This document shows positions 18,185 to 60,535 of a stretch of 64,000 nt of DNA, in pieces. Both the position numbers and the translations under genes were made by a program. The notes beneath the pieces were generated by a model. That model was not told the origin of the DNA, did no database searches, and saw only the letters and a program-made list of their open reading frames with translations. Source of the stretch: Octopus vulgaris. Its lineage: Eukaryota. Location of the stretch: assembly GCA_951406725.2 (NCBI GenBank), contig OX597818.1:107384001-107448000 (forward strand), written 5' to 3'. Numbering within the stretch: the stretch's first letter is position 1; the number at the start of each line of letters is the position of its first letter.

Positions 18185-19366
18185 GTTATAATAAAAACAA
18201 TTTTATTTTTAATCTGATGGCTTACTTTGTACTTTTATAGAGTACAAACTTATTCTTACACAAGAATACTGTTGATAGTAACTTTGAAGTTTTGGCCAGT
18301 TAAGCCATCATTGCAATGTCTTAACTGAGCCCCAACTTCGAAGTCACTGTCAATAAAACTCTTTTTTAAGAATAATATATCTATAGGCACAGTAGTAGCT
18401 GTGTGGTAAGTATAACAGCTTGCTTACCAACCACATGGTCCCGGGTTCAGTCCCACTGCGTGGCACCTTGGGCAAGTGTCTTCTACTATTGCCTTGGGCT
18501 GACCAAAGCCTTATGAGTGGATTTGGTAGATAGAAACTGGAAGAAGCCTACCATATATATTTATATATATGTATGTGTGTGTATATGTTTGTGTGTCTGT
18601 GTTTGTCCCCCCAACATCGCTTGACAACTGATGCTGGTGTGTTTATGTTCCCATAACTTAGCAGTTCAGAAAAAGAGACTGATAGAATAAGTACCAGGCT
18701 TACTCAGAATAAGTCCTGGGGTCTATTTGCTTGACTGAAAGCAGTGCTCCAGCATGGCCACACTCAAATGACTGAAACAAATAAAAGAGTAAAAGAGTAT
18801 ATATATCTTATTATGTGTGTGTTTGTAGGTGTGTGAATATGTATGCGTGTATGTGTGAATATGTGAGTGTATGTGCATATGTGTGAATATGTGAGTGTAT
18901 GTGTGTATGTGTGAATATGTGAGTGTATGTATATATGAGAGCATATGTGTATTCTGCATAAATTTGAACAAAAATTGTGTATGAGAAGTGTATTTTGGAA
19001 AGGCTGTGTATGTATTTTCAGATATTTTGTATATTTTTATGTGTATTTATCTTTGAGAGGATTCCGTCCGTAATCAGAGAATACTTTCCATTGTATGAGA
19101 TCAAAATATTCACACATACACTTTCACACATCTACAAACACACACATAATAAGGTATATATATACATATCCTTTTTAAACAAGGATATTGTTGACAGTGA
19201 CTTCAAAGTTTGAGCCAGTCAAGCTATCATCAGACAGTCTGCTGATGGCTTAGCTCACCAAAACTTCAAAGTCACTATCAATAATATTCTTGTTTGGGAA
19301 TAAGTTTGTACTCTACAAAAGTTTAGAGTAAGCCATCAGATTAATGTAAAATTGTTTTTTTATAAC
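18185..19366. mobile_element. Large fold-back element, probably Penelope-derived, with head-to-head degenerate hammerhead motifs
   Basis: 18185-18370 is the diverged reverse complement of about 19170-19366; the inverted match continues at 18800-18845 versus 19110-19165 once the inserted SINE is removed. Confidence 0.75.
18383..18797 (+). mobile_element. CORE-type tRNA-derived SINE family A, full length
   Basis: A-box-like TAGCTGTGTGG, B-box-like GGTTCAGTCCC, CORE-like GGCACCTTGGGCAAGTGTCTT, internal (TA/TG)n, tail AAAAGAGT repeats. Confidence 0.9.
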
Positions 19367-19381
19367 ATTTTATTGCATGAG

Positions 19382-19511
19382 GTGTGTGTGTGTGTGTGTG
19401 TGTGTGTGTGTGTGTGTGTGTGTGTGTGTGTGTGTGTGTGTGTGTGTGTGTGTGTGTGTGTGTGTGTGTGTGTGTGTGTGTGTGTGTGTGTGTGTGTGCA
19501 TGTGTGTGTGT
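19382..19511. repeat. (TG)n microsatellite
   Basis: Direct reading. Confidence 0.95.
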
Positions 19512-20139
19512 AATTAGAGAATCGCTTTTGGCCCCAGATCAGTCCAAATTAGGCAGACCAACGACCACACACTATAAGTGTCCCTTCTTTGGCTTTTTTT
19601 GTATATATACAACAATGATAATCAGTATATCTTTCCATTTATAAAACGGTGATGGTGATTTAAAGGAATTTGGCTGCTATTTCTTGTAGGTGAAGCAACC
19701 ACTTCTTGACTCAATATCATTGTAAATTTTTAGATTGTTTTTATTAACAGAGGTCAGGGTTAGAATATACTTTGCTATTGGATACATGTGTGCATGTCTG
19801 TGATGAAGAAATATTCATGATTGTGGATGTGTGATCAGAGAAAATAATGGCATGTGTTACCTAGGCATATTTCAGTGTGAGTGTCTGTGTGTGTGTGCGT
19901 GTGTGTATATGTGTGTGCATGCATGCATGCATGCATGCTTGTGTGTTAGATGTGTGAGAATATTAAAGCTGTCTTGTCAATGTCTGTTGGCATCAGATTA
20001 CTCTTTTCTAAGACAGGTTGACAATTAACATGAGGGGGAAGCATCTAAGTAATTTGACCCCAGTATATAATAAGATAAGTACAAACATGTAGAAATATTA
20101 AGGAGCAAAATTTGCATGCATCACTGAATGAATGGACGA

Positions 20140-20750
20140 ATCATCATCACCATCATCATGATCATGATCATGATCATCATCATTTATTGTCCATTTTCCA
20201 TGCTGGCATGGGTTGGACAGTTTGACTGGGGTCTGGGAAGCCAAGAGGCTGCACCATGCTCCAGTCTTATCTAGCAGTGGTTCTACATCTGGATGCCCTT
20301 GCTAATACCAACCATTCCGGGAGTGTAATGGGGGCTTTTTGTGTGCCACTGGCACAGGGACCAGAGAGGGCTGGCAACAACCACAATTGGTTGGTGCTTT
20401 TTATGTGCCACTGGCACGGAAGCCAGTCAAGGTGGCACTGGCATCGACCATGTTTGGATGGTGCTTTTTACATGTCACTGGCACAGGGATCAACTTCAAT
20501 TTCCATTTGATTTTGATTTTGACTCAATAGGTCTCCTCAAGCACGACATGTCCCCCTACAATTCAAGGTACTTTTGAGTGAACTGGTTATGCGACACTGG
20601 TGTAGGTTACACCTGTGAACTCACTTTATTTGCTGGGTCTTCTCAGTCATAGCATATCTCCTGAGGTCTCGGTCTTTCGTCATTGTCTCTGTGAGGTCCA
20701 ACTTTCGAAGGCCATACTTCACCACCTCATTCCATGTCTTCCTGTGCCTA
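20140..20750 (-). mobile_element. RTE LINE 3' end (ORF terminus, UTR and tail)
   Basis: Minus strand reads RKTWNEVVKYGLRKLDLTETMTKDRDLRRYAMTEKT, then the UTR repeat units and (GAT)n tail. Confidence 0.88.
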
Positions 20751-21361
20751 TATGTACACCTAGGTAGACCAGGGCAATTGATTTCCAAATTATAACTTCT
20801 TGTTGAAAGCCAAATGAAATGCTTATAGTAGGGTAAAAACCATCAAACTCTCAGTTGGTTGTATGCAATCCATTCATTTGTTTGTGCATCTCTAGACTTA
20901 TATGGCAGTAATAGAATGGAAACCTGAAGGAAATACAACAAAAACAACAGAAACTAAACAAAAAGAGAAAAAGAGAGGAAAATGAATTAATAAAATTTCA
21001 TTGAAAAATCTTATCTGATTTAAGTTTCAGCCGAGGCACAATAACTGTGCTTTTAACTCCACATTAGACAAACGGTTCTCATAAAAGTAATTATTTCTTC
21101 TGTAAATATTTCAAAATGTGGTTTTCATTCAAGAATTATCGCTACTCAGCAAATATGAATCAATGCTTCTGTGTGTGTGCATGTGTATGTGAGCAGAACA
21201 TTTACTTTTGAATATAGGTACACACACACACACAAACACACACACACACACACACATAAACACACAAACACACACAGACACATGCAAATATATGCATATA
21301 TATATATGTATGTATATATTTATACAGACATACACACAAATGTAAGTGCATACATGCATAC

Positions 21362-21625
21362 AAACATACAACCATACCTACCTACCTACCTACCTACATA
21401 CATACATACATACATACATACATACATACATACATACATACATACATACATACATACATACATATATATATACATATATACATATATATATCAGAAAACA
21501 TACAACCATACCTACCTACCTACCTACATACATACATACATACATACATACATACATACATACATACATACATACATACATACATACATATATATATACA
21601 TATATACATATATATATCAGAAAAT
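21362..21625. repeat. Duplicated compound (TACC)n(TACA)n(TA)n microsatellite
   Basis: A block from AAACATACAACCATACCTACC to TATATATATCAGAAAA occurs twice in tandem. Confidence 0.9.
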
Positions 21626-58507: not shown

Positions 58508-58552
58508 CTGTAGGACACGTGTTTCAGCATTGTTAGACTTCATCAGCTACAG
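58508..58552 (-). ncRNA. Minimal type I hammerhead ribozyme
   Basis: Minus strand CTGTAG-CTGATGA-AG..CT-GAAA-C-ACGT-G-TC-CTACAG; palindromic ACGU loop, GUC triplet. Confidence 0.75.
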
Positions 58553-58669
58553 GTATCAAATCCATAATTTGTAACCTACTAACAACTGCCATTCTTTAAA
58601 CAACAAAAACTTTAAAAATTACTATTTGTAAATCTCACAATGAGAGATATTCAGCAACAGTACTTTGGA

Positions 58670-58962
58670 GTAAAGATTATTTGCCAACATAGCATGGCAG
58701 TCCTAGTTTAGGACGTATGTAACAGTAATTTAGCCCCAGAAGACATCGTCTCCAGCTAGGCTGATGAAGGGAAATAACCCGGAAATCGCAATACACAGAT
58801 ATTCTTTTGAGCTGAGTTGGGGTGCTAGATATCTTTTTTTGAAAATATAAGGACACAGATTGTGTCACACAGCCAGATGGAAACGATGTCTCCTGGGGCT
58901 AAATTACAGCAAAATTCGTCCTAAACTAGGACTGCCATGTTATGTTGGCATATAATCTTTAC
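58670..58962. repeat. About 93 bp inverted repeat enclosing a hammerhead-like core
   Basis: 58670-58763 pairs with 58870-58962 (shared CATGGCAGTCCTAGTTTAGGACG and GTAATTTAGCCCCAG); CTGATGA-A-GGG..CCC-G-GAAA at 58761-58785. Confidence 0.85.
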
Positions 58963-60081
58963 AACAAAATGTAAATTTGCCCCTGTGTGCAAAGCTTTCT
59001 CAAACTAGAATCACCCCATATTTTGGCATAGAAAAGTTGATATAAAATATTTCGTAATAGATATCTAGACAGAAGCTGGGACTACAAGGGTAAGAGAGCA
59101 TTTCAAATTCTGTTGCATTTCTCCTTTTATTAGTGGAGTTAAGACAATTAAACGAGTTGCTGTGTTGAACACATTTATTTACAAAATAAATTACAAACAT
59201 GATAATGAAGCAGCCACTTCATACAAGGCCATACATATGACTGTATGACTGCAAAGTATATCATAATGGCAAAGAAGTCATTAAAGCAAATTAAAAGTCA
59301 ACAAACCACATTGAAAATTAATTAGAATTATGAAACTATCAATTGATAACAAAAGATAATTATGCGCAACTTAAAATCCAATAGAAAACCATCAAATTCA
59401 AATTCTTTATCATCATTTCATCTATCAAAAGGCCCAGTCCTTGTTTGATGTGTGGTGTGTATGCCTCAATGATCCTAAGAGCTGAGCCACTGAAGGGGAA
59501 TCTTCTTGTAGGACCCACTCCCCATGATGTATACAGGTCAGAGGATAGAGGCCAGATTAATGAGGACCACCTCTTCCCAGAAGTAAAAATATTTAAAACT
59601 ATTATTCAATAAATTCTATATTCCATAAGGATATGATTGAAGGGAAATTTCTGATAGGGTGGGTAAGCAAATGTGTTACATAAATGTTCTCTCATGGACT
59701 CAAATATATTCATGTGTATGTATTTATACTCATGTTTTGAATTCTGTTTAGGTTAGAAAATAATAGCTATTTATGCAAATAGGATAGGTCAAAGGAGGAG
59801 TAAAAATACTATAAAGTGTTGGTAATGCTAATCATGTTTATAGTACTAAGTAATAGTATTTATCATAATAATACATTACTTATCAATTTAATATAATTTT
59901 TCACTTACTACTAGTAGGCATTTCAGTCAATCCACCTATTATCCGAAATAGGTAGACCAGGGCCTACCACCAGGTATAATTGGTCAGTTAGTATTTAAAA
60001 ACAAAAAACTGACTACTAATAAACCGTTATTCTCCAGGGTAAAATAAACAAATGATATAAGGTACAAGGGGCACGGAACTG

Positions 60082-60345
60082 TTTAAGTCAATATAAATAT
60101 AAAAATAAAAAATATAAAGATATAAAGAAAATAAGATAAAATAAGACTAATAAAATAAAACAATAATAAAAGATTAGAAAATTTTCCAGTTTGACGTTTA
60201 GGAATTTTGATGGTTAAAGGGAGAAAACCATTTAAGTCAATAAAATAAAATAAATTTTGATGGTTAAAGGGCCTAAAACCATTTAAGTCAATAAAATAAA
60301 ATAACAATAAAAATTTACCAGTTGGACATTTAGAAGTATTGATGG
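60082..60345. repeat. Nested short tandem duplications
   Basis: TTTAAGTCAATA three times, TTTTGATGGTTAAAGGG twice, CCAGTT.GAC.TTTAG twice. Confidence 0.7.
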
Positions 60346-60535
60346 ATATCGCTAGCCACTAAACTTTTTTCTATTTTCTTTCCCTGTTTATTTCTGTGTT
60401 CCTTTCTGTCGAAGAGCATAGGCTCAAAATGTAAATGACTTTATCACTTCCCGAGCATTAAACTAATACATCTGTTTTTTGTTTACACACCCATCTTCGT
60501 CTTTTGTTGTTTGTTTTTGTTGTAAATTGTCGCTA
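60346..60535 (+). mobile_element. Short repeat family H1, third copy
   Basis: GCTAGCCACTA...CTTTCTGTCGAAGAGCATAGGCTCAAAATG...TTCCCGAGCATTAAACTAATACATCTG. Confidence 0.7.

Follow-up and report, generated by a model that had tools for sequence, protein, structure and literature searches.

Hammerhead ribozyme motifs in a 64-kb stretch of Octopus vulgaris DNA as copies of interspersed families, including terminal repeats of Penelope-like elements

Introduction

In a 64,000-nucleotide stretch of the Octopus vulgaris genome (GCA_951406725.2, contig OX597818.1, 107,384,001 to 107,448,000; hereafter the window, meaning the whole stretch), which is AT-rich and dense in microsatellites, an earlier note made from the sequence alone described an archipelago of hammerhead ribozymes in short modules lying in (TA)n tracts. 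The locus raises the question of what these modules are and how they came to lie there together. The archipelago is a known system, namely the ends of Penelope-like elements (PLEs) and one retrozyme, at near-normal density. Most likely, the modules are copies of about ten interspersed families, of which two are the terminal repeats (pseudo-long terminal repeats, pLTRs) of coding PLEs and one is a tandem retrozyme; these copies were probably inserted independently of one another into TA-rich DNA, through target-primed reverse transcription of RNA in which the hammerhead was probably uncut.

Hammerhead motifs in the window and in the genome

A strict type I hammerhead descriptor gave 4 matches in the window, whereas 200 local dinucleotide shuffles yielded 0.035 on average (maximum 1). 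A relaxed descriptor, composed after the motifs were already known and allowing C at core position 4 (U4C) or U at position 6 (A6U), gave 6 matches against a shuffle mean of 0.047 (maximum 2; 300 shuffles). The relaxed descriptor failed to pick up 28092 and 56159; jointly, the two descriptors recovered all six motifs that the earlier note had called complete (core C3 at 28092-, 53447-, 55213-, 56159-, 57609+, and 58546-, with the sign giving the strand), as well as 53168 and 55669. The core, stem I, and palindromic stem III were present in each of the six, in line with that description. Both the descriptors and the family majority sequences showed the type I topology, stems I, II, and III included; the latter, derived from homology without a descriptor, form stems I and II and a palindromic stem III. 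The palindromic stem III and loop 3 permitting a double hammerhead were present in the motifs of the relaxed descriptor, and the computed dimers of two of the seven motifs tried (families E and F) were textbook double hammerheads, which bears out the proposal that stem III is suited to dimers. A split-core hammerhead pattern, the one such pattern run over the window, gave one poor match.

As a genome sample, we used 80 stretches of 10 kb at round coordinates (L121-L180 and L393-L412; 800 kb of the 2.8-Gb assembly). It contained 26 canonical, 9 U4C, and 9 A6U motifs against 0.3 in shuffles, representing 36 separate events. The idea that AT-rich, microsatellite-rich DNA has produced the motifs by chance draws on the Rfam search that had been proposed as a check, which returned no match to the hammerhead models in the window at gathering score, and on the folding of most motifs, which is no better than that of shuffles. 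Among the best 150 of 234 Rfam E-value rows, the only hammerhead-model match was a weak one to HH9 at 58493-58564 (31 bits, cut-off 52, E 0.00085). With 6 matches versus 0.047 in the window, 44 versus 0.3 in the 800 kb, and majority sequences from homology alone that build all three stems, chance is a practically untenable explanation, already refuted by the descriptor counts against shuffles.

Every motif listed below has relatives elsewhere in the genome; family J was compared solely with loci fetched for other families, not by a genome search of its own, and has its relatives among those loci. According to the family alignments, the variant and decayed motifs of the earlier note are all hammerhead-derived. 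The cores at 53168 (U4C) and 55669 (A6U) are in the normal state of their own families, the motifs at 27569, 38215, 38589, 50925, and 60402 are decayed, and at 58761 an inversion junction has removed the 5' strand of stem I. The "arms" at 18185-19366 are two head-to-head pairs of decayed copies akin to 27569; the family majority alignments thus make these arms and the 58675-58965 block head-to-head truncated copies. The module length, given as 170-450 bp, is corrected to about 85-445 bp. Of the claim that the families are several and unrelated, the first part stands, but A and B sit on sister elements. The modules are as follows.

18185..18378, long arm on the minus strand: family J pair 1, head-to-head decayed copies related to family H
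19155..19366: family J pair 2, head-to-head, with the inversion junction near 19235; cores CTGCTGA (plus strand, 19239) and CTGATGA (minus strand, 19233), G12 lost in both
27537..27628, plus strand: family H, old, decayed (core 27574, G12 to A), with (TA)n at its end; at most 90% identical to other copies
27940..28130, minus strand: family C, complete canonical hammerhead with a long stem II; C3 28092, predicted cut after 28041
38135..38345, minus strand: family B, A6U core 38245, with damaged stems; a SINE-like (short interspersed nuclear element-like) repeat cuts its 3' end
38499..38700, minus strand: family A solo pLTR, U4C family, decayed (G5 to A); C3 38619, ends in (TA)n
50834..51036, minus strand: family A solo pLTR, canonical-looking core, stem III damaged; C3 50955, ends in (TA)n
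53137..53281, minus strand: family D2, intact family-typical U4C hammerhead; C3 53222
53381..53463, minus strand: family D, canonical-looking core in a U4C-majority family; C3 53447, ends in (TA)n, preceded by an inverted fragment (about 53465-53520)
55056..55500, minus strand: family E, one retrozyme unit flanked by a (TA)n tract on each side, with a complete canonical hammerhead; C3 55213, predicted cut after 55179
55600..55789, plus strand: family B pLTR, intact A6U hammerhead, (TA)n on both sides; C3 55673
56075..56164, minus strand: diverged family C, complete canonical hammerhead, truncated just upstream of stem I; C3 56159, ends in (CA)n
57545..57905, plus strand: family F, complete canonical hammerhead with a very long stem II; C3 57609
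58456..58570, minus strand: family G, old, complete canonical hammerhead, no TA; C3 58546, at most 83% identical to other copies
58675..58965, plus strand: family I, truncated inside stem I, core 58761, no TA; the inverted 3' tail at about 58675-58755 mimics terminal inverted repeats and is a head-to-head retro-insertion
60348..60533, plus strand: family B pLTR, A6U core 60406, decayed (G12 to A)

Coding partners of families A and B

Families A and B, the two largest, account for 5 window modules and were traced to coding elements. One family A locus contained a GIY-YIG frame followed by a B-type hammerhead and then (TA)n, and endonuclease sequence lay directly upstream of B in three further loci. 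In a search with the endonuclease domain, all 150 scored matches were 99-100% identical. A full-length copy showed, in order, a truncated unit, a pLTR, a 1,071-codon frame, a second pLTR, and (TA)n; the frame matched RVT_1 (E 1.5e-7) and GIY-YIG (E 0.005, below the Pfam cut-off), and the pLTR hammerheads on its two sides were identical. The units of this young element were 99.0-99.6% identical. It is a very young, apparently intact PLE with a 4.5-kb unit, often in tandem (L356:1875-7235, G000:C7; L357-L363), with at least 150 near-identical copies, and is a candidate active retrotransposon.

As read from its translation, the protein of the young element contains DKG, a CX4CxxC linker, CCHH, and GIY-YIG at the C terminus. 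By this motif pattern, as given for the clade in Craig 2021 (PMC8557442), rather than by a tree, the family B partner appears to be a Neptune-type PLE; Nematis is also a candidate because it too has the linker motif, whereas the features of the Hydra clade (CCHH absent, DKT for DKG) were not found. The homologs listed, at least 120, included no clade-labelled reference. The B copies of the window are 72-73% identical to the young pLTR and 80-90% identical to the end of an older endonuclease-bearing copy. A sister element has family A as its pLTR. The reverse transcriptase (RT)-region matches of that element are mostly 59-75% identical, and in 12 of 25 loci its hammerhead is located upstream of the frame; the A copies of the window are 84-87% identical to this pLTR. 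The short A and B copies are collinear with the pLTRs and carry no added sequence. Coding PLE partners, of the kind that the earlier note had suggested looking for, exist for A and B. The proposed non-autonomous retroelement system holds insofar as there are several PLE-type hammerhead families, but "non-autonomous" is not supported as the general rule, A and B belonging to elements with RT and GIY-YIG.

Two other kinds of element end were observed elsewhere in the genome. Internally deleted A elements, in which the frame start is joined directly to the 3' pLTR, occur at L131:1525-2120 and L380, and L210:1900-3166 (minus strand) holds the end of another PLE, with a GIY-YIG domain and, by eye, a canonical hammerhead of its own.

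Family E as a tandem retrozyme

Family E is a young 455-bp non-coding unit with a longest stop-free frame of 54 codons. A head-to-tail junction was present in 22 of 24 loci, picked as the best matches, and the family has two fixed 3' ends and head-to-head inversions. E alone was shown to be a non-coding tandem retrozyme with a type I hammerhead in each unit. Another retrozyme family was seen at L121:2300-4560, where seven identical canonical hammerheads are spaced by about 355 bp with one head-to-head inversion.

Insertion at TA-rich DNA

(TA)4 was present at 9 of the 18 module 3' ends of the window, which were placed by hand, compared with 5.6% of random positions (P 1.6e-7). In the 800-kb sample, 32 of 41 descriptor matches had (TA)4 within 300 nt downstream, 7 of them being one array, compared with 29% for random positions. 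The families that showed the TA preference were A, B, D, and E. Three of them (A, B, and E) have a fixed 3' end that falls on a short internal TATATA, located where units join, and then passes into (TA)n. For the young element, 28 of 30 terminal ends (one locus counted twice) continue as (TA)4 or longer, and 12 more ends run through TATATAT into the next unit. In contrast to this preference, no TA was found at the 3' ends of 26 aligned copies of G or 41 of I. The modules had been said to lie mostly inside or beside TA tracts; they are enriched there, but with 9 of 18 ends, and none in G or I, "mostly" is too strong.

Copying relative to cleavage

For family A, 25 unselected copies of 27 listed were analyzed, the excluded ones being one duplicate of a selected locus and one junction fragment. 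None of the 25 had an alignment reaching further than 76 nt upstream of the core; the whole ribozyme is kept in 19, and the other 6 begin at or after the core. In family E, 0 of 27 truncated 5' ends lay at the cleavage site. Most copies of A and E span the cleavage site, with 5' ends that are truncated or inverted. The 5' ends of A, B, and E suggest that most cDNA was copied from uncut or re-ligated RNA, like that of PAc in vitro, and since most copies retain the uncut ribozyme, cleavage seems not to precede copying.

In the mechanism that we propose, the PLE endonuclease would nick (TA)n, and the freed (TA)n end would anneal to a UAUAUA inside the RNA. Copying would halt at the 5' end of the RNA, giving the sharp boundary of family A, or earlier, as in family B, and tandem or circular RNA may be the source of the multi-unit E arrays. 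The family-wide U4C and A6U cores would represent slow or protein-dependent ribozymes, tolerated by the elements because insertion would need no fast cleavage. The inserted copies would decay neutrally and do nothing for the host.

Alternatively, the short modules might be self-standing non-autonomous elements that have their own transcripts and borrow a PLE enzyme. This is true for the short unit of family E, and in family A both the sharp 5' boundary and the abundance of short copies (about 50,000, against 208 first-look candidates for the coding part) are in its favor. However, the collinearity of short A and B copies with the pLTRs of coding elements, with nothing added, argues against it, as do the 5' ends of B, which are spread between -301 and +55 among the 27 copies listed with at least 75% identity. 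We regard this alternative as possible but not as the favored explanation.

Several observations weigh against the favored explanation of the modules. Besides the families without TA, a self-standing SINE-like unit would account equally well for the sharp 5' boundary of A, and three A copies begin 2-10 nt past the cleavage site, which cut RNA could yield. In the one PLE studied in vitro, reverse transcription started at a site without homology to the target (PMC11167929). For C, D, D2, F, G, H/J, and I, flanks of about 1.5 kb in the loci analyzed revealed no partner element, apart from one RT fragment 700 nt upstream of a single G copy. Single-strand folding favors the hammerhead fold in F alone (z -2.7; others -1.9 to +1.0). 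Finally, all six descriptor matches lie within 5.4 kb of the window (53222 to 58546), and none of the 80 sampled stretches had more than two events.

Density, clustering, and effect on the host

With 6 matches in 64 kb, the window is near the genome norm when compared with the sample (P = 0.07). Extrapolation from 44 matches in 800 kb gives about 150,000 descriptor-level hammerheads genome-wide. Family A occurred at 15 places and family B at about 19 in the sample, corresponding to about 50,000 and 65,000 genome copies; because these numbers are so high, the 2 A and 3 B copies of the window are ordinary.

The cluster at 53.2-58.5 kb invites another explanation, in which the host has kept it to end or destabilize a crossing transcript. 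Six matches of six families in 5.4 kb have a Poisson probability of about 8e-6 per 10 kb, and five intact-looking motifs at 53.2-58.6 kb lie on the minus strand. On the other hand, the ages of the copies differ widely (83% to 99%), the neighboring motifs are decayed, no exon was found, and chance alone would give about two such 10-kb stretches in a genome of 2.8 Gb. Because of this expectation, and because the window was picked for the feature and the descriptor tuned on the window, we read the cluster as a tail event, though with part left unexplained; retention by the host is very unlikely.

The earlier note had further inferred many self-cleavage sites in any transcript crossing the locus. 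About half of the motifs are decayed, and matching stem III dimer partners are mostly missing. In a Pfam scan of 150 of the 221 stop-free frames of at least 55 codons in the window, none had a match above the cut-off, and no host exon was found. PLE hammerheads are reported to be slow or protein-dependent (PMC4209133, PMC11167929), with low activity in Cervera 2014 (PMC4209133) and cleavage in 1 of 9 dimers in Li 2026 (bioRxiv 10.64898/2026.07.22.740005). With no exon, decay, few dimer partners, and low published activity, the inference is therefore unsupported. The archipelago itself is the ordinary look of a PLE-rich animal genome.

The 80 stretches also contained at least 15 further canonical families, many with a very long stem II, and six motifs with a U3-A8 core, known from Schistosoma PLEs, against 0.6 in shuffles.

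Core variants A6U and U4C

For core counts, copies not selected by the family's own query were used where selection mattered. The canonical core CUGANGA..GAAA..UH is the majority state in C, E, F, G, H, and I, but not in A, D, D2, and B. At position 4, C was found in 23 of 28 copies of A, 27 of 32 of D, and 17 of 18 of D2. At position 6, 61 of 63 B copies have U and none has A, while all four bases occur at N7, and an identical A6U core was found in 38 of 38 loci of the young element. Two C to T changes at CpG sites separate the cores at 53406 and 50925 from the majority of their family, and these canonical-looking cores are therefore likely decay products; the core at 53406, listed earlier as complete, would have arisen by CpG decay in a U4C family.

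Families A and B differ by a compensatory swap in stem I (31 C-G and 27 G-C of 64), which is one event inherited by many copies. A and B, between whose pLTRs an alignment is no longer possible, both retain C3, G5, G8, A9, G12-A14, and the UH site.

According to deep mutagenesis of the hammerhead, single changes in the CUGA turn lead to low activity (PMC9901934). Natural U4C (viroid) and A6C (phage) variants are slow in vitro, with low but real activity (PMC3088659). No report of family-fixed U4C or A6U, or of any A6U hammerhead, was found in the printed texts and supplements searched, figures being outside the scope. A6U and U4C cores that are fixed in whole families, in one case in a young intact element, may be an undescribed feature of a known system.

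A tentative reading of these cores, which we do not consider likely, is that the A6U and U4C hammerheads are working but throttled ribozymes that cut only as a dimer or when bound by the RT protein of their own element and are kept by selection in an actively spreading Neptune-type element and its sister. If true, throttling and priming at the internal UAUAUA would define the timing of cleavage after copying and the targeting of (TA)n. It is likewise doubtful, to a similar degree, that the motifs are no longer ribozymes and that their stems are kept for protein binding or priming while the core drifts. The latter would agree with the low activity of single changes in the CUGA turn (PMC9901934), the slowness of A6C and U4C in vitro (PMC3088659), the undiminished insertion of hammerhead mutants in vitro (PMC11167929), and the span of most copies across the cut site. 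The retention of C3, G5, G8, A9, G12-A14, and UH across the sister lineages A and B argues against drift, as does the fact that the free position N7 varies and that U4C recurs in three families.

An apparently intact element of recent amplification has a core change that is predicted to cripple catalysis, and its sister has another; the remaining fold is kept in both. This amounts to a natural experiment on the role of the PLE hammerhead, which could act as a slow switch, work as a ribozyme with protein assistance, or serve as a binding site. Standard descriptors requiring CUGANGA overlook these families, which made up 18 of the 44 sample matches.

Other features and rejected candidates

A SINE-like repeat occurs twice in opposite orientation, at 37806-38135 and 49364-49654 (291 nt, 91% complementary); the former copy contains an internal 62-bp tandem repeat and cuts the family B copy at 38135. 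The segment 18385-18800, between the two family J pairs, is presumably a tRNA-like SINE-type repeat. A 51-bp unit is present twice (94% alike) at 60203-60304, just upstream of the B copy at 60348, and 47730-47819 (plus strand), perhaps an old PLE fragment, weakly matches the young element in its RT region (E 1e-4, with 63% over 30 residues).

D and D2 (53168-53458, minus strand) share a stem III palindrome, lie 225 nt apart, and are on one strand, so that a mixed double hammerhead is conceivable. A linked D and D2 unit was rejected in spite of the shared stem III, with co-occurrence in 1 of 28 D loci, that of the window. A miniature inverted-repeat transposable element was rejected for 18185-19366 and 58675-58965, where alignment shows joined 3' parts of hammerhead-bearing copies with variable junctions. 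A unique domesticated HH9-like ribozyme at 58508 was ruled out, this motif being a member of the old family G of at least 40 copies.

Comparison with known systems

The function of PLE hammerheads has been called unclear (Craig 2021, PMC8557442), and cleavage was found to be dispensable in vitro (Frangieh 2024, PMC11167929). The available part of an octopus repeat annotation (PMC13282606) gives 31 recently active Penelope-like families and leaves ribozymes unmentioned.

The motifs of the window resemble the minimal type I hammerheads of PLE pLTRs (PMC4209133) in their thousands of dispersed copies related to truncated PLEs, with many families per genome; in their close pairs on opposite strands, palindromic stem III, and pLTR location; and in the unpaired base after A9 and the G10.1-C11.1 pair. 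They differ in having family-fixed U4C and A6U, whereas the available text of that study describes only U3-A8 covariation.

The young element is similar to Neptune, Hydra, and Naiad PLEs (PMC8557442) in its C-terminal GIY-YIG with CCHH, its linker (CX2-5CxxC), its partial-tandem and inverted insertions, and its microsatellite targeting; octopus Naiads are listed there with a (TA)n preference. It is unlike Hydra in having CCHH and DKG and unlike Naiad in its C-terminal endonuclease, and its own hammerhead core is A6U.

Family E corresponds to the animal non-LTR (long terminal repeat) retrozymes (PMC7229834; bioRxiv 10.64898/2026.07.22.740005) as a non-coding, PLE-derived unit that measures a few hundred bases, bears a type I hammerhead, and is found as monomers and in tandem arrays; it departs from them in its two fixed 3' ends, which run into (TA)n, and in the frequency of its head-to-head inversions. 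A and B are pLTRs of coding elements and not tandem units.

The internal RT start, alternative 3' ends, uncut RNA as the main template, and AT-rich targets are shared with PAc, a Poseidon element of Anolis (PMC11167929). The start of PAc is not homologous to its target, whereas the 3' ends described here lie at an internal TATATA that would anneal to (TA)n. Finally, the natural core variants reported so far in PMC3088659 are rare single examples, whereas U4C and A6U are here the majority state in tens of thousands of copies.

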